NCBI GenBank assembly: GCA_963810095.1
Contig: CAWEMM010000012.1
Location: 1-64,000, forward strand
Direction: 5' to 3'
Length of the DNA stretch: 64,000 nucleotides
Source of the DNA: an uncultured Chloroflexia bacterium
GTDB lineage: Bacteria; Chloroflexota; Anaerolineae; CG2-30-64-16
In this document: positions 12,305-49,654 of the stretch, piece after piece
Layout of the letters: each line of letters begins with the position of its first letter
How positions within the stretch are numbered: the first letter of the stretch is position 1
Notes under the pieces: model-generated
Seen by the model: the letters and a program-made list of their open reading frames with translations, nothing else
Database searches by the model: none
Told to the model about the DNA's origin: nothing
Program-made: the position numbers and the translations under genes

Positions 12305-12459
12305 GCGACGGCTTCGCCAACGTGCGCGAGCTTGGCTTCCCTGCAACGCTCCTGCCGTGCCCGGCACGCTGCATCCTTCCGGCGCCCCGGCGACATGTCC
12401 GCCGTGCTTCTGCATGGCGGACGATATCCTGCCGCATACATGTGCTGCCCGCACACGGT

Positions 12460-17700: not shown

Positions 17701-17760
17701 CTTTAAGCGCAACCACACTTTTGGTTAACCCTCGGCCAAGCTTGGGTAAGGAATCGTTAA
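17701..17760 (-). promoter_or_regulatory. Pho-box-like direct repeats upstream of pstS
   Basis: Minus-strand TTAAC/TTACC/TTAAC/TTAAA at offsets 0, 11, 32 and 54. Confidence 0.55.
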
Positions 17761-17898
17761 CGATTGCCGCGCCGCTTCGCCTTGTCGGTGCAGGGCGGTT
17801 CGCGAATGGCCGCCAAGCCATGACGCTTTGACTGTCCTCGACGATCCCGCGGTGCTGAGTTGGGGGCGCTCGAACACGACCGCGGAGCAGATCGCTCC

Positions 17899-18579: not shown

Positions 18580-18714
18580 CTCGTTCGACACAGTCCCCCT
18601 TCCCAGGCGCGTGAGCAACCATGAACCGGGGACAGAAGTGCAGCGACAAGCAGTGCAGCGATGGCCTGACGAATGACAGTCTGGCCCCATGGACGTGAAG
18701 GATAGCTAGTCCAG

Positions 18715-23912: not shown

Positions 23913-23982
23913 TCATCATACCACCGGGTTAACCCCTTGACAAGCACCTCACTCTCGTAATATCATGGAATTGGTATTATGA
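23913..23982 (+). promoter_or_regulatory. Sigma70-type promoter flanked by two candidate FadR operators
   Basis: TTGACA 23937-42, 18 bp, TATCAT 23961-66; TGGTAT(G/T)ATGA at 23913-23 (minus) and 23972-82 (plus). Confidence 0.65.
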
Positions 23983-24058
23983 CCTAATCACTACGGCGCT
24001 GCCACCCTTCGCAGCCTCCTTCCAGGTCACGTTTCCAGTCGGAGAGGACAAGAAACGA

Positions 24059-25063
24059 ATGACAGACTCGGTACTCCCTACGACCGCCGAGCGCAATGAT
24101 CCCCTCTCGGCCGAACAGCTCCTCGCGCTGTACCGCGGCATGGTCACCATTCGCAAATTCGAGGAGACCGTCTACGAGGTCTACAGCCGCGGCATCATGC
24201 CGGGGCTGGCGCACCTGTATACCGGCATGGAGGCCGTCGCCACCGGCGTTTGCGCGAACCTGCGACCGGCCGACAACATCACGAGCACTCACCGCGGGCA
24301 CGGACACCTGCTGGCCAAAGGCGCCGACCCCGCCCGAATGTTTGCGGAACTGTTGGGCAAAGCCAGCGGCTACAACAAGGGCAAGGGCGGCAGCATGCAC
24401 ATCGTCGATCTGGCCCTCGGCGTCCTCGGGGCCAACGGCATCGTTGCAGGTGGCATGGGCATTGCCACGGGCGCGGGTCTGTCGGCCAGGGTGCTGGGCG
24501 ACGACCGCATCTCTGTCGCGTTCTTCGGCGACGGCGCCCTCAACGAGGGGCTCTTTTACGAGGCCGCCAACATGGCCGCGCTGTGGAAGCTGCCCGTCGT
24601 CTACGTCCTGGAAAACAACTGCTACGGCGAATACACCTCGTGCGATCGCTCGACTTCGGGCAGCGGCCCCGCGCGGGCGGAGGCGCTCGGTATACCCGCG
24701 CTATCGGTGGACGGCAACGACGTGCTCGCCGTGTACGAGGCAGCGGGCTGGGCAACCGGAGTCGCGCGCTCGGGCCAGGGCCCGGCCTTCATCGAGTGCC
24801 AAACGTACCGGTGGCGCGGCCATCACATGGGCGACCAGGGTGACACCTACGGCTATCGGTCGCAGGCCGAAATCGAATCGTGGATGCAAGCATGTCCCAT
24901 CCGGCGATTCCGGTCCTACTTGCAGGACAACATGCCCGCGCTCGAGCCCGAGCTCGATGCCATCGATGCGGCGGTGCAGGCCCTGATCGACCAAGCCGTA
25001 CAGTTTGCCAAAGAAGCGCCGTATCCAGATCCGAGCGAGGTGTACACCGATGTCTACGCCTGA
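24059..25063 (+). CDS. ThDP-dependent dehydrogenase E1 alpha (AcoA/PdhA family)
   Basis: STHRGHGH, GKGGSMH, GDGALNEG...ENN, YRWRGH. Confidence 0.93.
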   Translation: MTDSVLPTTAERNDPLSAEQLLALYRGMVTIRKFEETVYEVYSRGIMPGLAHLYTGMEAVATGVCANLRPADNITSTHRGHGHLLAKGADPARMFAELLGKASGYNKGKGGSMHIVDLALGVLGANGIVAGGMGIATGAGLSARVLGDDRISVAFFGDGALNEGLFYEAANMAALWKLPVVYVLENNCYGEYTSCDRSTSGSGPARAEALGIPALSVDGNDVLAVYEAAGWATGVARSGQGPAFIECQTYRWRGHHMGDQGDTYGYRSQAEIESWMQACPIRRFRSYLQDNMPALEPELDAIDAAVQALIDQAVQFAKEAPYPDPSEVYTDVYA

Positions 25064-26063
25064 GGCCACGCCCGGTCAGGCCGGGTCCGGTCGCACCGGA
25101 ACGATCCGCGAGGCGATTAACGAGGCGCTGCGCGAAGAAATGCGCCGCGACCCGACGATCATCCTGCTGGGCGAGGATATCGGGGTGGCCGGCGGGGTCT
25201 TCAAGGTCACCAACGGCTTGCTCAAAGAGTTCGGCCCGAACCGGGTGTTCGATACGCCGATTGCCGAGGCGGGGATCATGGGGCTGGCAGTGGGCGCGGC
25301 GATGACCGGTCTGCGCCCCATCGTGGAGATCATGTTCTCCGACTTCACCACGTTGGCCTCCGATCAGCTCGTCAACCAGGCCGCCAAGCTCCGCTACATG
25401 ACCGGGGGGCAGTGCAGCATTCCGCTCGTCGTCCGCACGGCGATGGGCGCCAGCCGGCGTGCCGCTGCTCAGCACAGTCAAAGCCTGCAGGCGTGGTACT
25501 GTCACATTCCCGGCCTCAAGGTAGTCATGCCTTCCACACCCGAAGATGCGAAGGGCCTGCTGAAGAGTGCGATCCGCGACGACAACCCGGTCGTCTTCTT
25601 CGAAGACAAGATGATGTACAACCAGCAGGGACCGCTGCCAGTAGATGACTACACCGTCCCGCTTGGGCAGGCGAGGATCCACCGCCCTGGGCAACACGCG
25701 ACCGTCATTTGCACCTCGAGCATGCTCTACCCCGCGCTCGATGCGGCCGAACGCCTGGCGGCGGAAGGTATCGACGTCGAGGTGATCGACCCGCGCACCC
25801 TGTCGCCCCTGGACAACCAGACCCTCGTCACATCGGCGATTAAGACGGCGCACGTCCTGGTTGTGGACGAAGGCTACCGGAGCTTCGGGGTGACCGCAGA
25901 AATCGCTGCCCGGGTGACGGAGGAGGCGTTCGACTACCTGGACGAGCCTGTGCGCCGCCTCGGCGCGGCGGACGTGCCCGTCCCCTTTGCGCCGAGTCTC
26001 GAAGACCTGACGATTCCGAGCGCGGACCAGATCGTGGCGACCATCCACCAGATGTTGGCGTGA
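25050..26063 (+). CDS. ThDP-dependent dehydrogenase E1 beta
   Basis: GEDIG, DTPIAE, EIMFSDF, AAQHSQ, IDPRTL. Confidence 0.93.
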   Translation: MSTPEATPGQAGSGRTGTIREAINEALREEMRRDPTIILLGEDIGVAGGVFKVTNGLLKEFGPNRVFDTPIAEAGIMGLAVGAAMTGLRPIVEIMFSDFTTLASDQLVNQAAKLRYMTGGQCSIPLVVRTAMGASRRAAAQHSQSLQAWYCHIPGLKVVMPSTPEDAKGLLKSAIRDDNPVVFFEDKMMYNQQGPLPVDDYTVPLGQARIHRPGQHATVICTSSMLYPALDAAERLAAEGIDVEVIDPRTLSPLDNQTLVTSAIKTAHVLVVDEGYRSFGVTAEIAARVTEEAFDYLDEPVRRLGAADVPVPFAPSLEDLTIPSADQIVATIHQMLA

Positions 26064-26075
26064 CGGGAGACGCAC

Positions 26076-27509
26076 ATGGCTTACGAAGTCGTCATGCCCC
26101 AACTTGGCCTATCCATGGAGAGCGGCCGGATCGCGCGCTGGCTGAAGCAGAGCGGGCAGGTCGTGACGCCGGGAGACGTCTTACTCGAAGTTGAGAGCGA
26201 CAAGGCGACGGTCGAGGTCGAAGCAGTCGCGAAGGGCGAATTGCAGATCTGTGCGGGAACGCTGGACCGGCAAATCCCGGTCGGCCAGGTCATCGCCTAC
26301 ATCGTCGCAGCCGGAGAAGTCGCACCCGGCGCGCCGGCGGCGGTCCTTGCCACGCCGGGACCCGCAGCGGGTCCAGCCGCCCCGCCCTCGGCAGCACCCA
26401 GCCCCGATCTTGCCGTGGCCCTGGCTGGCGGGGCGAGGCCCCGTTCGAGCCCGGCCGCCCGAAGGCGGGCTCGCGAACTGGGCCTTGACTGGCGCATGGC
26501 CGCCGGCACCGGTCCCAACGGGCGCATCAAAGAGCGCGATGTCCTGCGATTGGCGGCGCCTGCGGCCGCGCGTCAAGAGGCGCCTGTTGAAGCCGGCCCC
26601 GACGCCGACCAGCGCATCTCGCCCTTGGCGCAGCAGCTGGCCCTCGAACTGGGGCTCGACCTGGGGGAGCTGACACAGCGCTTCCCGGGCCGGCGGCTGC
26701 AGCGTGAGCACGTCGTGCAGGCGATCCGGGATATGCTAGCGGAGGCAGGAGGGATGCGGGCCACGCAGCCCGCGGCGGTACCCGCCCCAGCTGAAGCCCG
26801 CCTGCCGGTGCGCCGGGAGGCGCGACGCGAGGCCCTGACAAGCATGCGGCGGCTGATCGCCGAACGCATGGGCCAGAGCAGCCATACCACCGCACCCGTT
26901 ACGCTGACGACCGAAGTGGACGCCACCGAGCTCGTGCGATTGCGCGAGGCACTCCGCCCTGAAGACGGCAACGGTTCGGCGCCCGCCTACAACGTGCTTC
27001 TGGCCAAGCTCGTCGCGTGCGCGTTGCGCGAGCACCCCGAGCTGAACGCCAGCCTCGAAGGCAGCGAAGTCGTCTACTGGGATGTGGTGAACGTCGGCAT
27101 AGCAGTCGACACCCCGCGCGGGCTCGTGGTCCCGGTGCTGTTTGACGTCGCGACGAAGCCGGTCGATACACTGGGCGCTGAAGCTGAAGACTTGCTGGCC
27201 CGCGCACGCAGTGGCAAAGCGCTGCCCGGCGAGTTGGCCGGCGGCACCTTCACGATCACCAATCTTGGCAGCTACCGGATTGATGCGTTTACGCCCATCA
27301 TCAACGCGCCTGAGTGCGCCATTCTGGGCGTGGGCCGCCTCCAACGCCGGCCGGTGGTCGACGAAAGCGGTGCGGTCGTGGTGCGCACGCTGATGTATCT
27401 CAGCCTCACCTTCGATCACCGTCTCGTCGACGGTGCGCCCGCCGCTCGTTTTCTGAAACGGGTGGCCGAATACGTCGAGCAGCCCTATCTTTGGTTGGCC
27501 CGCCTCTAG
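26076..27509 (+). CDS. Dihydrolipoamide acyltransferase E2
   Basis: Lipoyl motif EVESDKA, two subunit-binding-like segments, TFTITNLG, FDHRLVDG. Confidence 0.93.
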   Translation: MAYEVVMPQLGLSMESGRIARWLKQSGQVVTPGDVLLEVESDKATVEVEAVAKGELQICAGTLDRQIPVGQVIAYIVAAGEVAPGAPAAVLATPGPAAGPAAPPSAAPSPDLAVALAGGARPRSSPAARRRARELGLDWRMAAGTGPNGRIKERDVLRLAAPAAARQEAPVEAGPDADQRISPLAQQLALELGLDLGELTQRFPGRRLQREHVVQAIRDMLAEAGGMRATQPAAVPAPAEARLPVRREARREALTSMRRLIAERMGQSSHTTAPVTLTTEVDATELVRLREALRPEDGNGSAPAYNVLLAKLVACALREHPELNASLEGSEVVYWDVVNVGIAVDTPRGLVVPVLFDVATKPVDTLGAEAEDLLARARSGKALPGELAGGTFTITNLGSYRIDAFTPIINAPECAILGVGRLQRRPVVDESGAVVVRTLMYLSLTFDHRLVDGAPAARFLKRVAEYVEQPYLWLARL

Positions 27510-32920: not shown

Positions 32921-32923
32921 CCG

Positions 32924-33953
32924 ATGGCGACGACATCCACCTCCATTCGGCGGCCTCCGGGGAGCGCGGGGCTGGCGATCAAGCTGGCCCGCTTCCGTGA
33001 AGTGGGCATCGTGCTCTTCCTGTTGATCATCGTGGCCGGTGCGGCGATCGTCGAGCCGCGTTTCCTCACGCTGTTCAACCTACGAAGCATCCTGCTGTGG
33101 GTGCCGTTGCTCACCGTGATTGCCATGGGTGAGATGATGGTCATCATCACCCGCGGCATCGACGTTTCGGTCGGGTCCGTCATGGGCTTCGCCGGCATCG
33201 TTGTCGGCATGATCTTTCGGGATCATCCCGGTTTCAACATCTACCTGGGCGCGGTCCTCGCGCTCCTGATCGGCGCAGCGCTCGGCTCGATCAACGGCGG
33301 ACTGGTTGCCTGGGCGAAGGTGCCGCCCATCATCACCACGCTCGGCACCCTCAGCGCATTCCGCGGCCTCACGTTCGTCGTGAGCGGCGGGCGCCAAATT
33401 GATCCGAACCACGTCCCCCGGGAGCTGATCCGCTGGTCGCAAGTGGGCCCATTCGACTTCGAGTATGCGCCCTGGGTAGTCGTCATCGCGGCTCGCGGTG
33501 ACGCTGCTGGCCTACCTGTTCCTGCGGTTCGTCCGGCTAGGACGCTACATCTATGCCTTTGGCAGCAACCCGGAAGCAGCGCAGCTGCGCGGCATCCCAG
33601 TCGCACGTACGGCGTTCACCGTGTACCTCATCACGGGTGCGATGGCCGGCCTGGCGGGCTTGCTCTATGCCTCGCGCATGGGTTTCGTCAACCCAGGCCA
33701 GACGGGCGTGGGGTTTGAACTGACAGTCATCGCCGCCGTGGTGATCGGCGGCACAAACGTGTTCGGGGGCTCGGGATCCGTCATCGGCGTGCTGCTCGGC
33801 TGCCTGCTCCTCGGCACCATTAACGTTGCGCTGGCAGTGCTGGGGATCGCGGCGACCTGGCAGCTAGCCGTCTACGGTTTCGTTATCCTGCTGGCCGTGG
33901 TGACCGACGCCATTATCCAGGCCGAGCTGCGCCGCGCAGCCACAGGGGAGTGA
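32924..33953 (+). CDS. Monosaccharide ABC permease (indel near 33495)
   Basis: [18 protein letters not shown] and [12 protein letters not shown] split over two frames. Confidence 0.9.
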
Positions 33954-36755: not shown

Positions 36756-38246
36756 TCAGGCCTTCTGGGCGGACACAGCCAGGCTGTAGACGTCCACACC
36801 CTCGAGTTGGCCGCCGCTCAGGCTGCGCTTGCCGGCGACATCTACGAACCCTGCCTGTCGCACGAGATCCAGGTACTCCTGCTCGGGCAGCGCGCCGTTG
36901 ATGCAGCCCGCCCACATCTGCGGGTCGCCGCGCACGCTCATGGGCAGCGGACCGGCCGTCACCATGTCGCTGATGCTCAAGCGGCCGCCCGGCTTCAGCA
37001 CCCGGTAGGCTTCCTCGAAGACGCGGCCCTTGTCTTCCGCCAGGTTGATCACGCAGTTAGAGAGGATCACGTCGACCGTGCCATCTTCCACCGGCATCTC
37101 TTCCGCCTGGCCGAGCCGGAACTCGACCTGCTTCAGCCCGGCCTCCGCCGCGTTGCGCCGGGCACGCTCGATCATCGACGGGGTCATGTCCAGCCCGATC
37201 ACCCTGCCCGCCGGGCCCAACCCGACGGGCCGCGTAAAGCGCGTCGATCCCCGCGCCGCTGCCGATGTCGAGGACCGTCTCGCCCGGCCGCAGCGATGCC
37301 ATCGCGGTCGGATTACCGCAGCCGAGCGACATGTTCGCCGCGTCCAGGGGCACCGCGGCCAATTGCTCGGCGGTGTAGCCCGTGTCGTACAGCACCAGGT
37401 CCGCCTGGCCCGTCTCGACCAGTTCCATCGCGTGTGACGTGGGCGAACGGCAACTGCTCGATGCACGCGCCGCTCGCTGGCGAGCCGCTCTCGGATGTTG
37501 AGCAACAGCTGCTTTGCGCCGTCGTCGAGCCACAGCAGCCACTCTCGGCCAGCGCGCCGTAGCTGGCCTGCACCGCGGCTCGCCGCGCCGCTCACCCGCC
37601 GGCTCCCCGTGGCAACGAAAATGCTCGATATCCGCCATCGTCTCACCTTGCCGGCTCTGCGAACTCGAACTGCACGTCTGCCGAGTGGCGTCCACGATGA
37701 CGTTAACCAGGCCGGCCGCCCTGAACCAGCCGCGCACGGTCGGAGCGCTCGAAGCCGAGCCAGACGTCCGCCATCTCGTCGCGCAGCCAGGCGTGCTCGT
37801 GCCGGTCCATGTCCGTGATCACCAGCCGGCCGCCCGGCTTGAGCACCCGGACCATCTCCTTGATCGACGCCTCGGGATCGGGACAGTGATGGAGGTACAT
37901 GTTGGCGAAGACCGCGTCCAGCGACGCATCGTCGAACGGCAGCGCCGCGCCGTCGGCCAGCCGCTGCTCGACGTTGTCGAACGCCGGCCAGGTTCTGCTG
38001 TGCCGGCCTCCAGCATGGCGGCCGATCGCGTCGACCGCGTAAACTTTCGCCACCAGCGGCGCCAGGCCCGCCGCGACGAACCCGGTGCCCGAGCCGACGT
38101 CGGCCACGACCATGTCGGGCCGCAGGTAAGCCCGCGCAATCGCCGCGTCGCGCACCGCATCGCCGAAAATAACCTGGTTCGCAGCGATATCCCACTCGCC
38201 CGCGACCCGCTCGAAATACTCGGCCGACGCCTAAGTCATCGCTCAT
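36756..38246 (-). CDS. arsM: Arsenite methyltransferase with an extra N-terminal class I methyltransferase domain (many indels)
   Basis: C-terminal [36 protein letters not shown]; N-terminal [14 protein letters not shown]; Cys-rich linker. Confidence 0.8.
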
Positions 38247-38365
38247 CCTTCGTAGCCTGTCATGGCACATGCTCCTCTGCTGAAATGATGCGCAGGAACA
38301 AGTCTCTCCAACGCCAGCCCAGACGCACTCGTCAGGGCTCACGCGAAACCCGCTCCTGCAGCGGT

Positions 38366-38818
38366 TCATCGTATTTTTACGATCATTGTCGGCCAAAAAA
38401 GAGCTGCTCCCGGGGACGGCTGACTCGCGCCTACTGGCCGCGCCTGCGACCCATGGCGCGTCCAGCCTCGATCGAGCGGCGCAATCCGGATGCTCGACTC
38501 GCAGCAGCCCGGCAGCCAACCCTCGATTTGCTCCTTCAGCCAGCGCACGCCCGCCTCGCTGAGGCAGTAGCAGGTGGCCGGCCCCTCGAACTCACCCTCG
38601 ATCAGCCCCGCCTCGCGCAGCACTTTGAGATGCTGGCTCACCGTGGACTGGGCCAGCGGCGTCGTCGTCGACGATCTCCTGCGTGATACAGGTCTTGCGC
38701 TCGGCAAGCGTCTGCATGATCCGAAAGCGAATGGGATTGCCGAGCGCCTTGAGCATCGACACGAGCCGCTCTTCGTCTGCGGTGCTGGGCCGCTCCTGAA
38801 GCGTGATACTTGCTCCAT
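38366..38818 (-). CDS. arsR: ArsR/SmtB-family regulator (indels; 3' end uncertain)
   Basis: KALGNPIRFRI, PLAQSTVSQHLKVLREAGLI, TCYC, C-terminal CC. Confidence 0.85.
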   Translation of the reverse strand: MEQVSRFRSGPAPQTKSGSCRCSRRSAIPFAFGSCRRLPSARPVSRRRSSTTTPLAQSTVSQHLKVLREAGLIEGEFEGPATCYCLSEAGVRWLKEQIEGWLPGCCESSIRIAPLDRGWTRHGSQARPVGASQPSPGAALFWPTMIVKIR

Positions 38819-38849
38819 GCTTGCGCATCCCCTTCCGACCCATTTGCTA

Positions 38850-38904: not shown

Positions 38905-38909
38905 GCCCC

Positions 38910-39332
38910 CAATTTCGCGTTTTGCCAAAAACTCGGTGACCCGGCAGCGCAATGTCGTCTCGCACGCGGCGGAAGACGGCCAGCACCTCATCCTCGCTGC
39001 CCGATCGCCTTGGCCGGGTCTGGAAAGCCCAGGTGCACCCGCCGGCCCTGCCCCAGCCAGACCGGGCAGTTCTCGGCTGCATCGTCGCACACCGTCACGA
39101 CGAGGTCGAACGGCACGGTCCGGAACTCGTCTGCACTCTTCGAGCGGCCATCGTGCTCGATGCCGATCTCGCGAAGCGCCAGCAGCGCCAACGGATGAAC
39201 GTAGCCCGCCGGCTGCGTGCCCGCACTGTAAGCCTCCCACACGTCGCCCAGCCGGGCATTGACGATCGCTTCTGCAATCTGGCTGCGGCACGAGTTGCCG
39301 GTGCATAAAAAGAGGACTCGCCGCTTATCCAT
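38910..39332 (-). CDS. arsC: Arsenate reductase, LMW-PTP/thioredoxin type (3' indels)
   Basis: VLFLCTGNSCRSQ, SAGT, VTVCD...CP, FPDPA. Confidence 0.9.
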
Positions 39333-39369: not shown

Positions 39370-39827
39370 TTTGAATAACGATCAGAGGCTCTACAATAAT
39401 CTGCGCTCTTCACCGAATTGGCGACGAGGCTGTACTTCTGGGCAGAGGCGAGCGCCTTGCAGCACCCGGCGTTCCGTGCGAAGCGCTGTCGCCGCCAGCA
39501 TCCGTCCGCACCGTAATCTGCGGTCGGAAGTGGAGTTCGCTGAAGATCTCCGTCCGGTCGATCTCGATCTTCTTCGTCCCATCCGCTCGGCAGCGGTAAT
39601 CCACGAGATCGATCTTGAACCGCTCGCACGCCCACAAGAACATCAGCATGATGCAGGTGTTTGCGGCAGCCACGAACGCGTCTTCCGGCGTGAGCACGTC
39701 CGCTCTGCCCGTGCGCGTCCGGAGGGCGCTGAGAAAACCATCTCCGGGCCATTCCCGAGGACGAGGTGGCCCGAGTGTCCGCCGCGCCATTCGACGTCCG
39801 TGCGATACGTTCGCGGTCTTAGCTCAT
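39370..39827 (-). CDS. OsmC/Ohr-family protein (indels)
   Basis: YRTDVEW...G, TPEDAFVAAANTC, FRPQI, AQKYSLVANSVK. Confidence 0.7.
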
Positions 39828-40569
39828 GGCGCCGGCCCTCGCGCTCTGAGCGCTGCGCGCAGTACGCCTGCCATGCCAGCCCGACCGCCTGCGAATACCA
39901 TGCTTCATCCTCCGCGGCCACGTCGTTGTACACCTGCGCGGTCTGCCAGATCTACGGCGGGCAGGCCGGCGTCCGCGCGCAGCCCTTGTTTGTAGCGCCA
40001 TTTCCAGGATCGGTTCGAGAGCCATGATCGTAGCCGTGCGGCCGTCCAACTCGACCGTGGTCACGGGGATTCCCGATCCGCAGGCGCACGCCGAAGTGCT
40101 GACGCTTTTCGGCGGCCGGGTCTCGCTTCCAGGAGCGCGCCGGCTGTCCGGCTCCAGCGGGCTGCAATCAGCCGATCGACTTCCGCAGCGACCGCGCCGG
40201 CCAGGGCTTCGACGACCGCCCGGCTTTCGGGCGTCAGGCGGCGCAGCCCTTCCGGCTGTGGCAGCCCACGCTCTGCCGCGAACTCGTCCACGACGAACGC
40301 GGCGGCGGGCGCGTTGCTGTAGCGTTCGGTCGCCGCGGGCGGCGCACCGCTTCTCGCAGCCGTCCACCGCGATCGTCGGGTAGAACCTGGCGAAGGCGCG
40401 GTCGCCCTCGCCGCCCGCCAGGAAGAGGGGCAGGCAGATGGTTACGGTCTGGTCGGGCCGCAAGCCCTCGAGCACCCGGAGCGCGGCCTGCCGGGTTACC
40501 ATGCCCGCCGGGCAGTTCCTCGCCGGAACAGGCGATGACGCCGACTTTGCGGCTCGGAAGACTAGGCAT
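39819..40569 (-). CDS. DGC-domain putative zinc-binding protein with a CACGSG extension (indels)
   Basis: IACSG, TICLP, AVDGCEKRCA, CACGSG. Confidence 0.7.
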
Positions 40570-41014
40570 GGTCGGCTCCCTGCTCCGGCGTGCCGGGGCT
40601 TAGCGCCGCATCCACCGCGCCCACGACTTCCTCCGCCAGCGCCCGCGCCAGCGCCAGGCCGCCCTCATTCAGCTCGGCAATCCCCGCGGGCTTTAAGGTT
40701 CGATTGCGCCGGAACGTATCCAGCACCGTGAACTCCTGCGCCACCGTGCCGCCCGACGCGCGCTACCAGCTTGCGTTGCGCAGGCCAGCTTGCAACCGTC
40801 CAGTGTCACGACGGGCGCGGTCCTGCAACGCGGCGCGGCCTGCTTCATCGCCCAGAACCAGCAGCGACAAGCGGCACGATCGCGGTGGTTTCGCGGCCGC
40901 AGTTCGTCAATCACGATGTACGCGGCTTCCCGCGTCACTGCGCCGTACGCCTTGCCGATCCCGCTGCACGGCACGATGCAGACCGGCGCGCGGCGCCGCC
41001 GTTGTCTCGCTCAT
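40562..41014 (-). CDS. DGC-domain putative zinc-binding protein (indels)
   Basis: PCSGIGK, TLDGCKLACA. Confidence 0.7.
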
Positions 41015-41467
41015 CGATTCTCCCTCGGCTTCGGCCTGCGATCCGGGCGACCGCGAGGTAGGCTTCGGCGTCCAGCAGTCCGGAGACCGGCCACCGGGCG
41101 GGCCGCAGCTCGATGAGCCAGCCTTCGTCGTAGGGGCTGCTGATTGATCAAGCTCGGGCGCATCGGCGAGCGCGGCGTTGGTTGCGACGACCTCGACCCG
41201 CGAACGGCGCCGGAACGGCAAGGTCGACTTTGATGGTCTCGACATTCGCCAGGTCGTCCTCCGCTTCGACGGCGTTACCGACATCAGGCAGTTCCACGAA
41301 CGCGACGTCGCCGCTGGACTGCTGGCGAAAGTCGCGTCAGGCCCACCCGGGCCGCATCCCGTGCCGGGATCATAGTCGACCCACACGCCGGCAGCGGTGT
41401 ACAGGTAGCCGGACCGCACCCGAAAGATGAACTTGTCGACCCGGAACTCAAGGTCATGACCGTTCAT
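41011..41467 (-). CDS. GcvH-like lipoyl carrier protein (indels)
   Basis: [28 protein letters not shown] (lipoyl-Lys equivalent of VESVK), PYDEGWL. Confidence 0.75.
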
Positions 41468-42657
41468 TCTCGTCTCCTTGCCGTGGACCCGCTCGTGGCC
41501 GCGATCATCAGGCGCGGCCCGGTCGCACGGGCGGCGGACAGGCCTCTTCGGCAGCCGCCGTCATGCCGGCAGGCGCGGGCGGCCAACTCGCTCTTGAACC
41601 ACCGGCGCTGCAGCGCGAACGCCACATTGACCAGCGCGATCATGACGGGCACTTCGATCAACGGGCCGATCACGGCCGCAAACGCCTCGCCCGAGGTGAT
41701 GCCGAACACGGCGATCGCGACGGCGATGGCGAGCTCGAAGTTGTTGCTCGCAGCCGTGAAGGACATAGTCGCCGTCATCTTGTAGTTCGCACCTGCGCGA
41801 CGCCCCATCCAGAACGTGACCATGAACATGATCACGAAGTAGAGCACCAACGGGATCGCGATCCGGACGACATCCAGCGGCTGGTTGATGATCTGCTTAC
41901 CCTGCAGGCTGAACATCACGATGATGGTGAAGAGCAGGGCAACCAGCGTAATCGGGCTGATGCGGGGGATGAACTTCGTCTCGTACCACTCCCGGCCCTT
42001 AAGCCGCAACAGGATGAAGCGCGACCCGAAGCCCGCGATCATGGGGATGCCCAGGTAGATGAAGACGGTCCGCGCCAGCTCGCCGATGCTGATCTGCACC
42101 GTGGCGCTCTCCAGCCCCAGCGCCTGCGGCAGGACGGTGATGAAGATGTAGGCATAGACGCTGTAAAAGAGCACCTGGAAGACGCTGTTGAACGCGACCA
42201 GGCCGGCCGCGTACTCGGTGTCGCCCTTGGCCAGCTCGTTCCAGACGATGACCATGGCGATGCAGCGCGCGAGGCCGATGAGGATCAGACCGGTCATGTA
42301 CTCCTGGTTGTAGCCGGCCAGGAAGATGACGGCCAGCACAAACATCAGGATCGGGCCGATGATCCAGTTTTGTACGAGCGACATGCCCAGGACCCTCGTG
42401 TTGCGGAAGACCTCGGGCAGCCGTTCGTACTTCACCTTGGCGAACGGCGGGTACATCATCAGGATGAGGCCGATGGCGATCAGGATGTTCGTGGTGCCGA
42501 TCTGGAACTTGTTGATGAGGCCTTCGAAGCCGGGGATCAGGTAGCCGATGGCGACGCCGAGGGCCATGGCGGCAAAGATCCAGAGGGTCAGGAAACGGTC
42601 CAGCGTTGAGAGCCGTTTCGGGCGGCGGGCGCGGCTGCAACTGCCGATGTGAGTCAT
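41464..42657 (-). CDS. acr3: Acr3-family arsenite efflux transporter
   Basis: [39 protein letters not shown]; own ATG with GAGAGAG upstream. Confidence 0.95.
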
Positions 42658-42699: not shown

Positions 42700-42966
42700 G
42701 CCGTCAGTTGGCGTCCGCCTGCAAGGACGTTGGCCAGCATGGTCACGATCTGCTCGGGTGACGGGCACCCGGCCGCCGCTGAGCAGCTGGTCGTTGACGA
42801 CCAGGCCGGGCGTGGCGAGCAAGTCGTAACGCTGGTACTCGTCCGGCGTCGCCGCTCTTCTCGAAGGTCGCGTCGACGCCGAGTTGCGCGACGCCTGCTT
42901 CGCATTCTGCGCCAGCCGGTCACAGTTGGCGCAGCCGCCGCCTAGAATCTTGATGTGCAGGGTCAT
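42700..42966 (-). CDS. Small thioredoxin-like redox protein (MTH895 type; indels)
   Basis: [19 protein letters not shown]...GRVP. Confidence 0.8.
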
Positions 42967-43043: not shown

Positions 43044-43414
43044 CTACTCGTATGCCTCGCGCCCTGCGCCACGTTCCACCAGGCACTTGGGGCAGGTGCA
43101 GCAGGCGAGGGCCGTCGCGGACTGCCGGCCGTTGCCGTCGCTCGACGGCAGTCTGCGCAGGCCGCGGCCACCTGGCGCGCCACGTTGTCGTCCGCCAGGC
43201 GGTAGTAAATATTGGTGCCGTCGCGCTCGTCGACGATGACCTTGGCGTTGCGCAGGATCGCCAACTGCTGCGAGACATAGGGTTGCGATTTGTTGAGCGC
43301 CGCGGAGAGGTGGCACACGCACTCGGGCTCGACCCGCAGCAGGTCCACGATCTGCAACCGCACCGGGTGCCCGATCGCCTTGAGCAAGGCGGCCTGTTGG
43401 CGGTAATGTTCCAT
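43044..43414 (-). CDS. arsR: ArsR/SmtB-family regulator (3' indel)
   Basis: KAIGHPVRLQI, ECVCHL, SQQLAILR, C-terminal CTCPKC. Confidence 0.88.
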
Positions 43415-43585: not shown

Positions 43586-43677
43586 CACTTGTGGCGGCGT
43601 GCCATTGCCCTCTCGCGCTCCCCCACGCCGCGCCGTGTTGCTGAGTCCTTCCGCCGAATTGTAAGAGGAGTAATGAC

Positions 43678-46437
43678 ATGGTCAGCACCAAACGCAGCCC
43701 TGCAGGAGAGCGCAAGCCGAGATCGGCGCGCGGGGCCGTCCGGGATGCGCCTGTGGCAGTCAACCAGGCCCAGGCATACGACGTGCGCATCGTGCCGGCC
43801 CAGGTGGCGCCCGGCCAGGAATACTGGCGCGTCGTCAGCGTGCGCCACTTGAGTCCGGACGAGAACCGCGGCAAGCACAACGTGTTTGTCGACGCCCAGG
43901 ACGCTTCCGGTCAGCGCTGTCGAGACGCGGCGCTGCGCATCGGTTGGACGTGGGAGGGGCGCAACCCCCAGGACGCGGCAGACCCGAAGGCGCTCGATAA
44001 GCCGGACACCGAGCCCGCGGGCAACCTGGACGTGTACAAGGGGCAGCATATCGAGCTCTGGATCCAGGGTGATGGCCGGCCCAGCGACCATGTCGCGAAT
44101 TTGCGCACGGACCACCCCGACGAGCCGGGACCGAACGGCGAGTTGTGGAACACGTTATTCCACCACTCATTTTATGTGATCTTCCGTCTCAGCAAGATGG
44201 AGCCGGCGGGAAATGGACAGCAGCCGGGCGCCTCGGGCGCCGGTGCGCCGGGCGCCGGTGCGGGAACCGTCACTTCCCCCTCCAGCCCGCCACCTTCCAG
44301 CACACCGCCTTCCAACCCGCCCACGGCCGCGGGCTCGCCGGGAACGCCGGCGCCGCCCACGAGCGCGCCCGCGACGACTTTCCGCTTCGAGGCCTGGCCG
44401 AGCGAGTACCGGGTCATCACGCAGGCATTCGGCGTCAACCCGCAGAACTACAAGCCGTTCGGGCTGCCGGGGCACGAAGGCCTCGACATCAAGGCGCCGA
44501 CCGGCAGCAAGGTGTTCTGCGTCGCACCGGGGCAGGTCAAACTGATCACTCTCGTGAGCCCCGATCCCAAGAAGCCGGCGTATGGCAACCACGTGCGGGT
44601 GCTCCATGCGGACGGCTACGAGACGATCTACGCGCACCTGCAGTCGATCGCGGTCGAAATGGGGCAGACCGTGGCCGCGGGACAGCTCCTCGGGTTGGCG
44701 GACAGCACGGGCAACAGCACCGGCGCGCACTTGCACCTGACGCTCAAGCATCACGGCGAGTCGTTCGACGGCTATCCCAGCAGTATTGTCGATCCGACGC
44801 CGTTCCTGGCGCCGCTGCTCCAGGCGCAGCCCGCACCCGCAGCCGCAGGCGTGAAGGTGTCCGAAAAGTTGGGCTTAAACTGCAACGCGCCCACAGACGA
44901 CAACGGCAACCTCACCCCCCGCGTCGCAAACCCCCGGCTCATTGCAGATACGGGCGTGGGCTGGGTCCGGCTGAACTTCATCCTGCGGCCGTTCAACAGC
45001 CCCGCCGACGCGGGTTGGGTGGAGAATTACCGGAAGATCATCAAGGGCCTGCGCGACCAGGGGCTCAAGATCTACGGCCTGATCCACGCGCAAGCGGTGA
45101 CGGGCGACCCGGGCAACCAGTTCCGTGACGAGCCGGCAGGCTCGATCGACAACGACTGGATCCGCCGGTATGCCGAGAACTTCCGCATCATCGTCCAGCA
45201 GTTCAAGAACGACGTCGCGGTCTTCGAGTCGTTCAACGAACCCAACGACTGGCACCGGGTGCCGGGCGACCGGCCCTGGGAACAGCCGTGGGTGCATCCG
45301 TACTGGTTCGCCGTGATGCTGCAGAAGGTCTACGATGCGGTGCGCGACCTGAATGTGAAGCTCGTGTCGGGTCCGCTCCTGTCGACGCAATTCGGGAATG
45401 CGGCGGCCGGCTACCTGGCCAAGACCTACGAAGGGGGCGCCAAGTACTTCAAGTGGGGGGCCGGCGCGCCCGTGCCGTTTGACGGCGTCGCGTTCCACCC
45501 GTACGTCCTCATGGATTCTTCCCAGCCCGCGCTCGAGATCCCCCCGCGCTACCAGGACTACATGAAGGGGGTCAAGGACGCGATCACGACGTGGGAGAAG
45601 GGCACGCTGCGGCCGGTCTACATCTCTGAGATCGGCTTCCAGAACGCAGAGGACCGCCAGGTGGAGTGCATGAAGGTGGCCCTTCGCTGCGCGCTGGACG
45701 ACCCGTCCGTCGCGCTCTGCTTCTGGTATGGCATGCAGGACGATCCCGGCGAGTCCTACGGCTTGTATCGTAAGGAGGGCCTGGCGCCCGAACAGCAGAA
45801 GCCGGCGTACCAGGCCTTCGTCGCGCTGGCCCGAGAGGACCGCCGCGTCCCGGTGGCAGCCCTCCGCCCTGCGCCCCTGGTGCCCGATGCCCGTTTCGTC
45901 GCCGAGCTCGATGCGGTGAAGGATGGGACGGTCTTTGCGCCGGGCAGCTCGTTCACCAAGGTCTGGCGCATGCGGAACAGCGGCACGGCCCCATGGGGTG
46001 ACGGCTACAAGCTGGTGCGAATCGACGGGCTGAGTCTGGGCGCACCCGCCTCGATCCCCGTGCCCGCCTGCCCGCCGGGTCAAACGGTCGACCTCGCGGT
46101 CCCATTCGTGGTACCGCCGGAACCCGCGACGTGCACGAGCAGGTGGCAGCTCGTCGATCCGACCGGCAAACGCTTCGGCCAACCGGTCTGGACGACCATC
46201 AAGGTGCAGGCGCCGGTTGCCCCCGGCGTCGCGGCCAAGGACCTGTTCGGCGCCGAACCGTCCGAGCTCCTCGCGCCGGCCGCGGGACAGACGGCCGTCG
46301 CCGCCGCGCTCGGCATCATCTACACGACCTACTGGTTGCGGGTGCAGGCCGCCCAATCCGCCGCTGACCCGCAGCAGGCGCTGCGCGAGGCGGCCGAGGA
46401 CGCGCTCGCACAAATCAGGGCGTGGACGGCGACCTGA
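43678..46437 (+). CDS. Multidomain protein: unknown N-domain, M23 peptidase, GH-A-clan-like glycoside hydrolase, NBR1-like Ig domain
   Basis: M23 HEGLD/YAHL/HLHL; GH WVRLNF, FNEP, FHPY, ISEIG; NBR1 FTKVWRMRNSG...W. Confidence 0.85.
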   Translation: MVSTKRSPAGERKPRSARGAVRDAPVAVNQAQAYDVRIVPAQVAPGQEYWRVVSVRHLSPDENRGKHNVFVDAQDASGQRCRDAALRIGWTWEGRNPQDAADPKALDKPDTEPAGNLDVYKGQHIELWIQGDGRPSDHVANLRTDHPDEPGPNGELWNTLFHHSFYVIFRLSKMEPAGNGQQPGASGAGAPGAGAGTVTSPSSPPPSSTPPSNPPTAAGSPGTPAPPTSAPATTFRFEAWPSEYRVITQAFGVNPQNYKPFGLPGHEGLDIKAPTGSKVFCVAPGQVKLITLVSPDPKKPAYGNHVRVLHADGYETIYAHLQSIAVEMGQTVAAGQLLGLADSTGNSTGAHLHLTLKHHGESFDGYPSSIVDPTPFLAPLLQAQPAPAAAGVKVSEKLGLNCNAPTDDNGNLTPRVANPRLIADTGVGWVRLNFILRPFNSPADAGWVENYRKIIKGLRDQGLKIYGLIHAQAVTGDPGNQFRDEPAGSIDNDWIRRYAENFRIIVQQFKNDVAVFESFNEPNDWHRVPGDRPWEQPWVHPYWFAVMLQKVYDAVRDLNVKLVSGPLLSTQFGNAAAGYLAKTYEGGAKYFKWGAGAPVPFDGVAFHPYVLMDSSQPALEIPPRYQDYMKGVKDAITTWEKGTLRPVYISEIGFQNAEDRQVECMKVALRCALDDPSVALCFWYGMQDDPGESYGLYRKEGLAPEQQKPAYQAFVALAREDRRVPVAALRPAPLVPDARFVAELDAVKDGTVFAPGSSFTKVWRMRNSGTAPWGDGYKLVRIDGLSLGAPASIPVPACPPGQTVDLAVPFVVPPEPATCTSRWQLVDPTGKRFGQPVWTTIKVQAPVAPGVAAKDLFGAEPSELLAPAAGQTAVAAALGIIYTTYWLRVQAAQSAADPQQALREAAEDALAQIRAWTAT

Positions 46438-46483: not shown

Positions 46484-46745
46484 ACTGCTCGCAGGCAGCC
46501 TCTGCCGAGGTAGCCGCTGCCCGGGGGGCGCACAGTTCGCCTTGACAGCACAATTCACAAGAACGATGCACCAATTCCATTAAAATGGTTGTATAATCGT
46601 AGCGCCAACTAGCATTGCGAGCTTGCACCGCCGTTCTCAATATGCTCCAGAGCCAACAATGCTGAGGCCGGCTGCATCGTCAGCAGGCGGCTTTCTGTGT
46701 TGGACCGTGCCGGTTCTCGTGCGTTTCAGGACGGGGGTCACGGTC

Positions 46746-48572
46746 ATGGTAGTTGGGCTCTTCCGGTACAAGAACTTCGACCTCGAAGTCACGGAGTCCG
46801 ATGACGGCGCCTACCTAGCCGTTGCCTCCAGCGACCTCTTGCCATCGTCCGGACCCGTCAAGGCTCGTTTCTGCCTGCCATTCTCCGAAGAAGAACTCGC
46901 CCACTTTCCCGCGCCGGGCGGCTTTGCCCGTCGCCTGTCCCCAGTCCGCGACGCCCGGGTCACCCGCGCAGCGGCCCCTGCCGCTCTCGACGCAGCCGAA
47001 TTCGGACGTCGCCTCTTCGCAGCCGTCTTTGACGACGAGCAGGGACAGCCCAACGATGCGGGTGCGCTCCTCATGGCGTGCCTCCACGCCCTAAACGACC
47101 GTATCGGGCTCCGGATTCGTCTCGACCTCTGCCCTGCGCTGGCCGTTCTACCCTGGGAGTATCTGAGCTCGCCCCACGAAGATCCCTTCGCACTGTCCAA
47201 TAGAACGCCTGTCGTGCGAGTGCGCAAGGGCGACTGCCCCGCGCCAGACAACGCCGCGGTCGAAGCGCCTCTGCGGGTGCTCGCCATCATCTCGCCCGCC
47301 AGCAGCGACCTGGACCTGGCCGGGGAGTGGGAGGAACTGCAGACCGCACTGAGCGATCTCGTGACGTGGAAGTACGTCGAGATCGACCTACTCCAACGCC
47401 CGACGTTAGCCGGTCTGCAGGATGTACTGCGCGAGCACGAGTATCACGTCATTCATTTCATGGGCCACGGCGGCTTTGACGACGCGACGAATCAAGCGGT
47501 GCTCCTCTTCGACAAGGAGACGCCGGCCGAACACCTGGCCCGCCACCTGGGCAACCACCCACCCAAGCTCGTCTTCCTCAATGCATGTAACAGCGGCAAG
47601 AGCTCGCCAAACGACGCACTGGCCGGCGCGGCCCAGGGCCTGATCGCGAAGCAGGTGCCCGAGGTCGTTGCGATGCAGTTCCCCATCGGCGACCGGGCCG
47701 CGGTGCTGCTGGCGCGGGAGTTCTACGAGGCCATCGCCGACGGCTACCCGGTCGAGGCCGCGCTGAGTGAGGCCCGGCTGGCCGTCCTCGACTCGCAGCA
47801 GCAGGACGAGTGGAGCACGCCGGTGCTGTTCAGCTGCGGCACAGGCAGCATGGCGCTGGACCTGCCCGAACCGCCCCCACCCTACCGGCCGGGAACCGGC
47901 GAGCCTGAGACCGTGGTCATCCCGGCAGGGCGCTTCTGGTTTGGCAGCGGGGTGCCCGAAGATCAGCAGGGCGGCGCAGACCTGCCGCGCCAGCTCCGCC
48001 TGCCCACCTACGCAATCGGGAAGTACCCCGTTCGGAACGACGAATATGCCGGTTTCCTGAGCGAACCGAAGAACCGCAAGTATCTCCCGAGCGATCCCGG
48101 TTGGACCGTCATCGACCCACCCGCGGGACGGGAGGCAGCACCGGTTGTTGGCCTGACATGGGAAGCAGCCTGCGTCTACTGCGAGTGGCTGAGCCAGACC
48201 ACAGGCCAGCGCTACCGCCTGCCCACGGAAGCCGAATGGGAAAAGGCGGCCCGGGGCGACCAGGACCAGCGGCGCTACCCCTGGGGCAATGATCCCGCCG
48301 GCGCCCGCGCGCCAAGCCCCTACGGCTGCTGTGACATGGTAGGCACGATTTACGAGTGGACCTGCACCAAGTGGGACGGCGATCCAACAGCAGTATTTGG
48401 CCCGCATGAGGCGGGATCGTTGTCCGTCCGTGCGTCTGATGACGCTCTGACCCAGCGCGGCGGGCCTTTCAAGGCTGGTCAGCCGGCCGGGAACTGCAGT
48501 ACCCGGCGCCGCCAGCCGGGGTTGCGGACGTCTCAGAGCGTGGGCTTTCGGGTCGTGCGGGTCGTCGGTTGA
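46746..48572 (+). CDS. CHAT (caspase-like) protease fused to an FGE-sulfatase (SUMF1) domain
   Basis: LPWEYL, HFMGHG, FLNACNS, VVAMQ; YRLPTEAEWEKAARG, YPWG, DMVG...EW, GFRV. Confidence 0.9.
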   Translation: MVVGLFRYKNFDLEVTESDDGAYLAVASSDLLPSSGPVKARFCLPFSEEELAHFPAPGGFARRLSPVRDARVTRAAAPAALDAAEFGRRLFAAVFDDEQGQPNDAGALLMACLHALNDRIGLRIRLDLCPALAVLPWEYLSSPHEDPFALSNRTPVVRVRKGDCPAPDNAAVEAPLRVLAIISPASSDLDLAGEWEELQTALSDLVTWKYVEIDLLQRPTLAGLQDVLREHEYHVIHFMGHGGFDDATNQAVLLFDKETPAEHLARHLGNHPPKLVFLNACNSGKSSPNDALAGAAQGLIAKQVPEVVAMQFPIGDRAAVLLAREFYEAIADGYPVEAALSEARLAVLDSQQQDEWSTPVLFSCGTGSMALDLPEPPPPYRPGTGEPETVVIPAGRFWFGSGVPEDQQGGADLPRQLRLPTYAIGKYPVRNDEYAGFLSEPKNRKYLPSDPGWTVIDPPAGREAAPVVGLTWEAACVYCEWLSQTTGQRYRLPTEAEWEKAARGDQDQRRYPWGNDPAGARAPSPYGCCDMVGTIYEWTCTKWDGDPTAVFGPHEAGSLSVRASDDALTQRGGPFKAGQPAGNCSTRRRQPGLRTSQSVGFRVVRVVG

Positions 48573-48604
48573 TGGAGCGAGGCGGGGCTTAGGAGGCGAA
48601 CGGG

Positions 48605-49654
48605 ATGGACGACGAACAAGTGCAGACCGCAGCCCGGCGAATAAAAGAGGGTACGTGCACGCCGATCATCAGCAACGAACTCATCATCGACCAGTATTTC
48701 GGCCAGGAAGCCGCAGGCAAGCTGGCGGGTGATTGGGCGCGCAGCGAGAGGGTGGGCTATCCCCTCGAATTGGACGAGGACAAGTACGACCTGTCCTGCA
48801 TCGCCCAGTACTGCTCGACTGTCAAGGGCTCCAGCGCAGCAAAAAGTATGTATCACGATCATCTCAAAAAGAGGTTTATCGAGGATGTCAAAAAAGCCGA
48901 TGCTCGGGCCGATGTGGACGACATCGACGAGCAGCGGGGAGACTTTACGTTCACGCAACTGGTCCTCGAACAACTCCAGCACCCGGGGTTCGGCCAACGC
49001 CTGGCGCCGGCCGCAGACGGAGCAGGCGACGGAACCACCCGAACGATCGTCGAGACGCTCGCGACCTTCAAGGCAAAGGTCTTTATCACCACCAGCCCGC
49101 ACACATTTCTCGAGAGTGCGCTGAAAAAGTACCAGAAGACACCGCGCAGCAAAGTCTACGACCCTCTGTGGGCTTCTCGGGGCGAGGATGACGCCGGCGC
49201 GACCGGAACGGGGGAAGCAACGAAGAGTGACGAGTGGAACCCGATGGTGTACCACTTGCTGGGCAAGGAAGACTTTGACGACTCGCTCGTGCTTTCTGAG
49301 GATGATTACCTGAGCGTGTTGCCAAGACTGTTCGAGGACCGCAAGAACACCAAGGTCGTGCCCGGCGAAGTGAGCGACGCCTTGACCCGCAGTTACCTGC
49401 TGCTGTTGGGGTACGACGTCGCCAGTTGGGAATTCAGAATCGTGCTCCGGCTCATTGCAACCCAGTACCCGCGACCACGCGGCATCGCGGTGCAGATCGA
49501 TCCGTACCGGGCGCCCGGCAAGGTAAAGGACCGCGACGCATACCTGGCCTACCTGAAGAAGGTGTTTGGCGACCCGGAACTCACCGTCTTTGCCGGCACG
49601 CCGTGGCAGCTTGTCGGCGACCTTGCCAAACGGCTGAAAGGGGGATCGCCGTGA
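48605..49654 (+). CDS. SIR2-like domain protein (divergent motifs)
   Basis: FITTS, VYHLLG, SLVLSEDDY, LLLLGY...WEFR. Confidence 0.75.
   Translation: MDDEQVQTAARRIKEGTCTPIISNELIIDQYFGQEAAGKLAGDWARSERVGYPLELDEDKYDLSCIAQYCSTVKGSSAAKSMYHDHLKKRFIEDVKKADARADVDDIDEQRGDFTFTQLVLEQLQHPGFGQRLAPAADGAGDGTTRTIVETLATFKAKVFITTSPHTFLESALKKYQKTPRSKVYDPLWASRGEDDAGATGTGEATKSDEWNPMVYHLLGKEDFDDSLVLSEDDYLSVLPRLFEDRKNTKVVPGEVSDALTRSYLLLLGYDVASWEFRIVLRLIATQYPRPRGIAVQIDPYRAPGKVKDRDAYLAYLKKVFGDPELTVFAGTPWQLVGDLAKRLKGGSP

Follow-up and report, generated by a model that had tools for sequence, protein, structure and literature searches.

This report concerns a 64,000-nucleotide stretch of DNA from an uncultured Chloroflexia bacterium (GenBank contig CAWEMM010000012.1, positions 1 to 64,000), hereafter called the window, and in particular four genes on its minus strand that lie between the genes for the arsenite efflux transporter Acr3 and the arsenate reductase ArsC. 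The four genes encode a GcvH-like lipoyl carrier, two proteins with the DGC domain (PF08859), termed DGC1 and DGC2, and an OsmC-like protein. They are the core of a self-contained six-gene operon of Chloroflexota, whose other members encode an ArsR-family regulator and a mini-thioredoxin of the MTH895/ArsE type. Tentatively, we propose that the operon encodes a dithiol redox relay that would be derepressed by a thiophilic metalloid and is often recruited to arsenic-resistance (ars) islands, and that the copy in the window is broken by assembly error.

A preliminary description, made from the letters of the window, had placed the four genes correctly, as Pfam matches on their in-frame pieces confirm. 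It had taken them as intact and as a module of four. None of them is an open reading frame (ORF), the window copy being broken throughout, and the mini-thioredoxin gene, the sixth member of the module, had been overlooked.

A six-gene operon conserved in Chloroflexota

The piece of the GcvH-like protein that can be read from the window has 54 relatives of 132-159 amino acids (aa), at 67-82% identity. An alignment of these relatives was used to query 185,579 species genomes, one per species, and 40 loci were recovered (designated below by L numbers). Of these, 39 are titled Chloroflexota (Anaerolineae, Caldilineales), and the sole locus with another title lies on a contig of 3.5 kb that was binned as Burkholderiales. 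The best DNA identity between the window and the 40 loci is ~81-82% over at least 700 nucleotides (nt), reaching 85% over 275 nt.

The core of the module was defined by clustering all ORFs of the loci, by applying Pfam to 107 cluster representatives, and by seed searches. It is fixed and consists of ArsR, the GcvH-like protein (147-149 aa), DGC1 (~137 aa), DGC2 (~245 aa), the OsmC-like protein (~153 aa) and the mini-thioredoxin (~84 aa). The order GcvH-like, DGC1, DGC2, OsmC-like is kept in all 34 loci that reach far enough, a count that includes L037, which a masked stretch of N interrupts; the other six contigs stop within 170 nt. Of the 40 loci, 37 have ArsR and 34 have the mini-thioredoxin. 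Because the start and stop codons of adjoining genes usually overlap or abut, their coordinates suggest that the module genes are translationally coupled. Gene content, order and conservation, like the conserved residues and neighbourhoods described below, are direct observations. The earlier view of the four genes as one unit, together with a regulator of the ArsR family, is borne out by the conservation of this synteny in 40 loci elsewhere.

One genome, represented by a single record set of a metagenome-assembled genome, carries two copies of the module (L018 and L031), one of which adjoins genes for an ArsP-like permease and PIG-L deacetylases.

Recurrent linkage to arsenic-resistance genes

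Of the 40 loci, 14 have a gene for Acr3, thioredoxin-type ArsC, ArsM or an ArsP-like permease at most 10 kb from the module, or 12 if the ambiguous permease is set aside. Among the 17 well-flanked loci, which extend at least 5 kb on both sides, an arsenic-specific gene is present in 9. In the remaining 8, Pfam detected none of the arsenic families on 112 of the 133 listed flanking ORFs; these unlinked copies stand alone or with genes for TauE, FmdE, a PF04060 Fe-S protein or VKOR. The module directly adjoins acr3 in the window and in L008, L014, L017, L029 and L036.

A tree of the module was built from concatenated GcvH-like, DGC1 and DGC2 sequences (32 rows; the frameshifted L008, L031 and L040 and five incomplete loci were omitted). 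Rows linked to ars genes are spread over four or more lineages, of which the deepest branch (L036) is one. The state is known for 18 rows, half of them linked and half unlinked (9 each), and at least four changes are needed to explain them. The ars link is recurrent and not obligate. Given one or two ars loci per genome, the 14 linked loci among 40 greatly exceed chance expectation by an estimate that was not computed; with these counts and 9 of 17 well-flanked loci, the module is not a constant component of ars operons.

The genes had been proposed to form an ArsR-controlled arsenic module, and a search of other genomes for co-location with ars genes had been suggested as a check. An ArsR-family regulator does belong to the unit, which recurs beside acr3, arsC or arsM in several branches of the tree, and the search finds arsenic-specific genes near the module in the numbers of loci given above. 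However, the unit is not tied to ars genes, since 8 of the 17 well-flanked loci have none.

Other neighbours that recur near the module are related to thiols, sulfur or metal cofactors. They include TauE/SafE, FmdE, NifX-like and PF04060 Fe-S proteins, an AhpD-like CMD protein, thioredoxin with CcdA/DsbD, VKOR, and an MshB/BshB-like deacetylase. A radical-SAM/SPASM protein, which resembles metalloenzyme maturases, is a neighbour in 8 loci, and the AhpD-like CMD gene is found downstream of the module in 9. In L001-L006, a trio of genes 3' of the module encodes the AhpD-like CMD protein, a thioredoxin and a CcdA/DsbD membrane protein (for example, L001 12327-13971). Other loci have TauE-FmdE-NifX-like sets or the PF04060 Fe-S protein in this place.

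Frameshifts in the window copy

Shifts in reading frame were called by frameshift-aware alignment to intact homologues. The four genes contain 20 shifts in ~2.1 kb (18 of +1, one of +2 and one of -1) and no in-frame stop. The ars cluster as a whole, from 36.7 to 43.4 kb, contains 36 (30 of +1, two of +2 and four of -1), besides which 3-4 extra shifts are seen by eye at the ends of module genes. In-frame stops are absent from the frames of the entire cluster; aligned stops lie only outside coding parts, upstream of the likely start of the methyltransferase-ArsM gene and past the Acr3 match. Deletions of more than 2 nt are also absent from the aligned cluster genes. The encoded proteins are 66-72% identical to their homologues, and intact homologues are 46-84% identical among themselves. 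The same kind of break occurs at other positions of the module in three public loci (five in L040, three in L031 and two in L008), and 9 of these 10 breaks are +1. In a frame plot, phase switches are dense at 38-44 kb and again at 16-20 kb.

Because the module lacks in-frame stops and large deletions, retains identity at the level of orthologues, is broken in a patchy manner, and has counterparts with similar +1 breaks in three public loci, its frameshifts most likely reflect assembly or sequencing error and not decay. Two observations count against an artefact. The patchy shifts spare a neighbouring ORF of ~2.8 kb (43678-46437), which is unbroken, and only 2 of the 36 shifts are near a run of at least four identical nucleotides, versus a background of 7%. 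Error of the homopolymer type is ruled out as the cause of the breaks by this last comparison.

Instead, the module and most of the ars cluster might be dead pseudogenes in this genome, with acr3 alone being kept. This would account for 36 frameshifts in 6.7 kb beside a stretch of 1179 nt in acr3 that is free of shifts, and for breaks that show no link to homopolymers. However, the frames hold no stops, deletions do not exceed 2 nt, and protein identity is unreduced. Moreover, 30 of the 36 events are +1 insertions, whereas decay of bacterial genes is biased to deletions. The 36 shifts leave 35 gaps with a mean of 169 nt, and a gap as long as that in acr3 has a chance of ~3% under even scatter; acr3 is therefore not strongly singled out and is only mildly odd. 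Other parts of the window are split too, and the three public loci carry like breaks, mostly +1, elsewhere in the module. We consider decay to be very unlikely.

Frameshifts are scattered patchily over the window, and several genes outside the ars cluster are split. They include genes of the Pst-PhoB region (15-19 kb), where pieces of a Pst permease and binding protein are found, and a response regulator with its receiver domain (18202-18705) and DNA-binding domain (17760-18278) in different frames. A sugar ABC permease is in two pieces (32921-33950).

The window is also a caution, in that a gene-by-gene reading of the raw sequence overlooked ~36 frameshifts. Annotation or expression constructs should start from an intact homologue, for example that of L014 or L001.

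Proteins of the module

The ArsR protein of the module has five invariant cysteines, arranged as CVC and CxCxxC. The CVC motif is that of ArsR proteins that sense arsenic, antimony or cadmium.

The GcvH-like protein matches GCV_H (PF01597; cut-off 22.2 bits) with its window piece at 41151-41336 (4.5e-8, 33.5 bits), and the intact L014 homologue scores 105.8 bits. The putative lipoyl-attachment lysine, K78 in an E-x-x-K hairpin, is invariant in 37 of 37 homologues. It is retained in the window as ETIKV, in agreement with the motif NVETIKV reported in the preliminary description. Proteins of this family have no cysteine and carry a family-specific N-terminal extension, DKFxFRV. Four homologues score below the NCBIfam GcvH equivalog cut-offs (95.9-104.3 versus 115.85 bits, and 106.4-109.5 versus 117). 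The GcvP and GcvT families were sought among 63 window ORFs (from 78 that passed a filter of at least 90 aa and GC3, of 385 in total) and among 37 of the 49 listed minus-strand stop-free segments; neither family was matched, as had been stated earlier for the window, and neither occurs among the cluster representatives of the loci. A canonical role in glycine cleavage is rejected because of the scores under the GcvH cut-offs and the lack of gcvP and gcvT among the ORFs scanned.

Window pieces of both DGC genes match the Pfam family, at 40696-41010 (1.3e-6, 28.8 bits) and at 39822-40664 (1.2e-8, 35.4 bits). The cut-off is 27 bits, and intact homologues score 43.9-59.9 bits (45.9 and 54.3 for the DGC1/DGC2 set). 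DGC1 has exactly three invariant cysteines (C12, C69 and C73), which reside in CSG and DGCxxxC motifs and are present in the window reading. DGC2 has six, of which four are in the DGC domain and two form a CxC motif in a C-terminal domain that no Pfam family matched. The fourth cysteine of its DGC domain is C45, at a site that has no invariant cysteine in DGC1. The predicted model of DGC2 is confident, with a pLDDT of 82.8. In the ESM Atlas, the C-terminal domain matched its own DGC clusters alone (at 0.75), which is a lead only. A tblastn search of 72,556 plasmids with DGC2 produced no match.

Complex prediction weakly supports docking of the GcvH-like protein on the DGC pair. In three runs with DGC2 plus DGC1 as partner, the score was 0.41 (0.41, 0.50 and 0.39), the best of 3 controls reached 0.02, and replacement of DGC2 lowered the score to 0.01. 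The runs share at least 44% of contacts, and the partner pLDDT is at least 87. The mark used is reached by 116 of 157 solved complexes and by 2 of 215 mismatches; scores of at most 0.60 comprise only 18 of the 157 solved complexes, yet both of the mismatches that pass.

The OsmC-like window fragment (39413-39823) matches OsmC (PF02566) at 2e-5 and 25.3 bits, which is under the cut-off of 27.5 because of the frameshifts; homologues score 39.1 and 42.5 bits. The predicted fold resembles solved structures of OsmC and Ohr, with 50 matches at E<=0.001. The best is 2onf_A (3e-8), and Escherichia coli OsmC (1qwi_A) is matched at 1.2e-6. Thiol peroxidases of this family have two catalytic cysteines, one on the long helix and the other in the C-terminal helix. 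Cys57 occupies the first catalytic position and is invariant, as is Glu47, which precedes it by ten residues.

An intact homologue of the mini-thioredoxin matches Thioredoxin_3 with 76.4 bits, and the L014 protein exceeds the cut-off of NCBIfam TIGR00412 (72.3 versus 62 bits). All 29 proteins compared share both cysteines of its CxxC motif, C15 and C18, and the window copy reads GCANC. In the assembly of L038 (6008-6739), the OsmC-like protein and the mini-thioredoxin are apparently fused in frame in a single ORF of 244 aa.

A possible redox relay and alternative functions

In the relay that we tentatively propose, a thiophilic metalloid such as As(III) would bind the cysteine-rich ArsR protein and thereby derepress the operon. 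Under arsenic stress, hydroperoxides or similar oxidised compounds would form and be reduced by Cys57 of the OsmC-like protein. To recycle this single reactive cysteine, the relay would use the lipoyl arm of the GcvH-like protein, the CxxC motif of the mini-thioredoxin, or both, and DGC1 and DGC2 might hold, dock or recharge the lipoyl carrier. Its regulation, lipoylation, electron path and substrate are the parts of the relay that we infer.

Several observations weigh against this proposal. The second catalytic position of the OsmC-like protein, which is cysteine in 2onf and 2d7v, is an invariant serine (Ser131), a replacement overlooked in the preliminary description, and the family gains an invariant Cys78. 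No arginine is invariant within residues 1-45, and R68 and R119 are invariant elsewhere. In OsmC and Ohr, a glutamate and an arginine are catalytic residues. With Ser131, the new Cys78 and no invariant N-terminal arginine, peroxidase chemistry is therefore not assured. The module includes no lipoamide dehydrogenase and no other evident reductase linked to NAD(P)H. We know of no function for the DGC domain. No solved relative of the DGC proteins was found in searches with their sequences (E<=1) or folds (E<=0.001); in the latter, the top matches were generic flavodoxin-like folds with TM <0.5. The predicted docking of the carrier, obtained with alignments that we built ourselves, lends weak support. 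The second-best NCBIfam match of the regulator is the sulfite/persulfide sensor BigR (54 bits versus a cut-off of 155), arsenic as the regulatory signal is suggested by cysteine motifs alone, and there are the 8 of 17 well-flanked loci with no arsenic-specific gene. We hold the proposal no more firmly because the second cysteine is lost, a reductase is lacking, and the function of DGC proteins is not known.

A different possibility is that the dihydrolipoyl arm chelates As(III) and delivers it to Acr3 or ArsM by way of cysteine sites in both DGC proteins and the OsmC-like protein, or that the carrier is a decoy that spares lipoyl enzymes. Arsenite binds lipoic acid, according to the accessible part of one source (PMC10138600), which favours such capture. 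The window encodes a lipoylated E2 protein that would need protection, the module abuts acr3 in the six places listed above, and the canonical second cysteine is lost from the OsmC-like protein. ArsR, ArsD and ArsM usually bind As(III) through three thiolates, and DGC1 has three invariant cysteines, with a fourth at the matching site of DGC2. However, genes for an arsenic transporter or methylase are missing near the module in the 8 unlinked well-flanked loci, a stoichiometric decoy would be costly, and fusion of the OsmC-like protein to thioredoxin points to redox turnover and not to metal transfer. We regard capture as doubtful, and the decoy or chaperone function proposed in the preliminary description as conjecture. 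Arsenic might alternatively move as on a metalloid chaperone, with As(III) on the dihydrolipoyl arm being handed to the three-cysteine site of DGC1, DGC2 acting as a scaffold, and then to Acr3 or ArsM, while the OsmC-like protein and mini-thioredoxin strip arsenic from poisoned lipoyl arms or re-reduce them. This version seems to us unlikely. If true, it would be a repair-and-export route that shields 2-oxoacid dehydrogenases, and would provide a first function for the DGC domain.

The module could also serve in general thiol, reactive-sulfur or soft-metal stress and be in no particular way tied to arsenic, its presence in ars islands being due to shared ArsR-type regulation and to traffic among islands. 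Such a role would explain why 8 of the 17 well-flanked copies stand alone, with unrelated genes around them, why its other neighbours so often concern thiols, sulfur or metal cofactors, and why BigR is the second-best family of the regulator. However, arsenic-specific genes occur within 10 kb of 14 of the 40 loci, which we estimate, again by judgement and not by calculation, to be far above chance. The link is seen in four lineages, the deepest branch (L036) among them, and the regulator bears the CVC motif. A purely general stress function is thus improbable in our view, and the redox relay remains our tentative preference.

Relation to described systems

The closest described systems, on the basis of the accessible parts of the sources, are GcvH-like/OsmC pairs and lipoyl-dependent Ohr (bioRxiv 10.64898/2026.10.01.755906, PMC10332631). 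In the available portion of the former, OsmC of Hyphomicrobium denitrificans probably receives electrons from a GcvH-like protein that is encoded next to it, and lipoyl-dependent Ohr and the OsmC/H-protein/L-protein system of Trichomonas are cited (bioRxiv 10.64898/2026.10.01.755906). The suggestion in the preliminary description that the carrier is a reducing relay for OsmC therefore has a precedent in H. denitrificans, as far as that portion goes. Like these lipoyl-dependent hydroperoxide reductase pairs (Hden_1299/Hden_1301, and Trichomonas OsmC with its H and L proteins, as the same portion presents them), the module has a stand-alone H-protein paralogue that retains the lipoyl lysine and resides beside a gene for an OsmC fold, away from gcvP and gcvT. 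Unlike them, it has two DGC proteins and a mini-thioredoxin as obligate members and an ArsR-type regulator at its head, its OsmC-like protein has serine for the second cysteine together with Cys78, no L-protein is linked, and about half of its well-flanked copies are in ars islands.

The module resembles LbpA of sHdr sulfur oxidation, to the extent that the accessible sources describe it, in that a GcvH-like carrier is given a task other than glycine cleavage and is encoded with cysteine-rich partners. Unlike the LbpA/sHdr system, the module loci show no hdr, dsrE, tusA or LipS1/S2 genes. With classical ars accessory proteins (ArsD, or the MTH895/ArsE-type thioredoxin beside an ArsP-like permease), the module shares small cysteine-rich proteins under ArsR beside an arsenite pump, and its mini-thioredoxin belongs to TIGR00412. 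In contrast to classical ars operons, it has no ArsD or ArsA.

In mycobacterial AhpC-AhpD-DlaT-Lpd, a lipoyl protein feeds a thiol peroxidase via a small CxxC adaptor. The proposed chain from lipoyl protein to thiol peroxidase would be similar, and an AhpD-like CMD gene follows the module in the 9 loci noted above. However, the carrier of the module is of the H-protein type and not an E2, the fold is OsmC and not AhpC, and there is no Lpd.

The operon, or a DGC (PF08859), GcvH-like or OsmC-like gene as part of an ars cluster, was not found described in the literature searched, subscription journals and closed supplements lying outside the search; this agrees with the earlier remark that the module is not known as a described ars component. 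PF08859 itself had 0 occurrences in the search, and the matches to "DGC domain" were all diguanylate cyclases. The pairing of a lipoyl carrier with OsmC is already known, and what is new here is its extension by DGC proteins, a mini-thioredoxin, ArsR control and frequent ars linkage.

The ars cluster and other features of the window

From 43.4 to 36.7 kb, the minus strand of the window carries a single cluster of 10 genes, in the order ArsR, mini-thioredoxin, ACR3, GcvH-like, DGC1, DGC2, OsmC-like, thioredoxin-type ArsC, second ArsR and methyltransferase-ArsM (Table 1). With two ArsR-type regulators, ACR3 above its equivalog cut-off, and pieces of ArsC and ArsM, all on one strand, it is an ars operon. 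The last gene encodes a fusion in which ArsM is the C-terminal half and a type-11 methyltransferase domain stands in front; an intact version of 489 aa is found at L029 13562-15031.

Table 1. Genes of the ars cluster in the window, with frameshifts relative to intact homologues
Feature	Position	Strand	Shifts	Evidence and remarks
ArsR1, ArsR/SmtB-family regulator	43059..43414	-	1 of -1 (at 43123 vs L014 ArsR)	Pfam HTH_5 1.4e-12; CVC and C-terminal Cys cluster
Mini-thioredoxin (Thioredoxin_3; MTH895/ArsE family)	42714..42966	-	2 of +1, 1 of -1 (42888, 42841, 42756)	Pfam Thioredoxin_3 1.9e-11; GCANC
ACR3 arsenite efflux transporter	41500..42657	-	1 of +1 (41577, near 3' end); frame otherwise whole	NCBIfam TIGR00832 1.9e-135, 451 bits vs cut-off 283
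GcvH-like lipoyl-carrier gene, 147-149 aa family	41011..41467	-	6 of +1 by alignment; 7th near stop by eye	GCV_H; 104/149 identical to L008 homologue
Putative lipoyl-attachment Lys codon (ETIKV)	41229..41231	-		Sequence; Lys invariant in 37/37 homologues
DGC1 (PF08859), ~137 aa	40565..41014	-	3 of +1, 1 of -1	Identity 97/137; start overlaps GcvH-like stop
DGC2 (PF08859 and C-terminal domain with CACGSG), ~243 aa	39820 (approx.)..40569	-	4 of +1, 1 of +2	Identity 163/243
OsmC-like gene, ~153 aa	39359 (approx.; 3' end uncertain)..39827	-	5 of +1 by alignment; 2 more at start by eye	Identity 113/156
Thioredoxin-type arsenate reductase ArsC (LMWPc fold)	38905..39332	-	2	Pfam LMWPc 6.8e-17; NCBIfam arsC_pI258 family, 89.6 bits on 110-aa piece
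Second ArsR-family regulator	38450..38824	-	2	HTH_5
Two-domain methyltransferase (type-11 methyltransferase fused to ArsM)	36759..38263 (5' end uncertain)	-	7	C-terminal 161-aa piece matches NCBIfam arsenite methyltransferase subfamily, 4.8e-58

Elsewhere in the window, on the plus strand, a 542-aa ORF (10987-12612) contains the catalytic domain of a lipoate-protein ligase, and a set of genes at 23933-27506 encodes the E1a, E1b and E2 subunits of a 2-oxoacid dehydrogenase. The E2 protein has a single lipoyl domain, and no E3 gene is adjacent. The ligase and dehydrogenase genes indicate that the organism makes lipoylated proteins and, therefore, has classic targets of arsenite. The intact ORF adjoining the frameshifted cluster, also on the plus strand (43645-46434), encodes a protein of 930 aa that combines an M23 peptidase domain with an Ig-like domain of the NBR1 type. 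The ORF is followed by a gene for a protein with CHAT and FGE-sulfatase domains (46584-48569, plus strand), which matches the PADLOC SAVED_CHAT model at 7.2e-13, and then by a gene for a SIR2_2 protein (48593-49651, plus strand). The latter two may be a defence-like pair.

Implications

Enzymes that carry lipoyl groups are classic targets of arsenite, and we know of no described resistance system that is built around a lipoyl carrier. The operon reported here is compact and tightly conserved, and it recurs in ars islands of both Anaerolineae and Caldilineae. Members of these groups abound in sludge, sediments and soils, environments in which the cycling of arsenic is important. The OsmC-like protein is a natural variant of OsmC without the second catalytic cysteine. 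The operon makes a connection between lipoate and metalloid stress open to experiment, and provides a first way to approach the function of the DGC domain.

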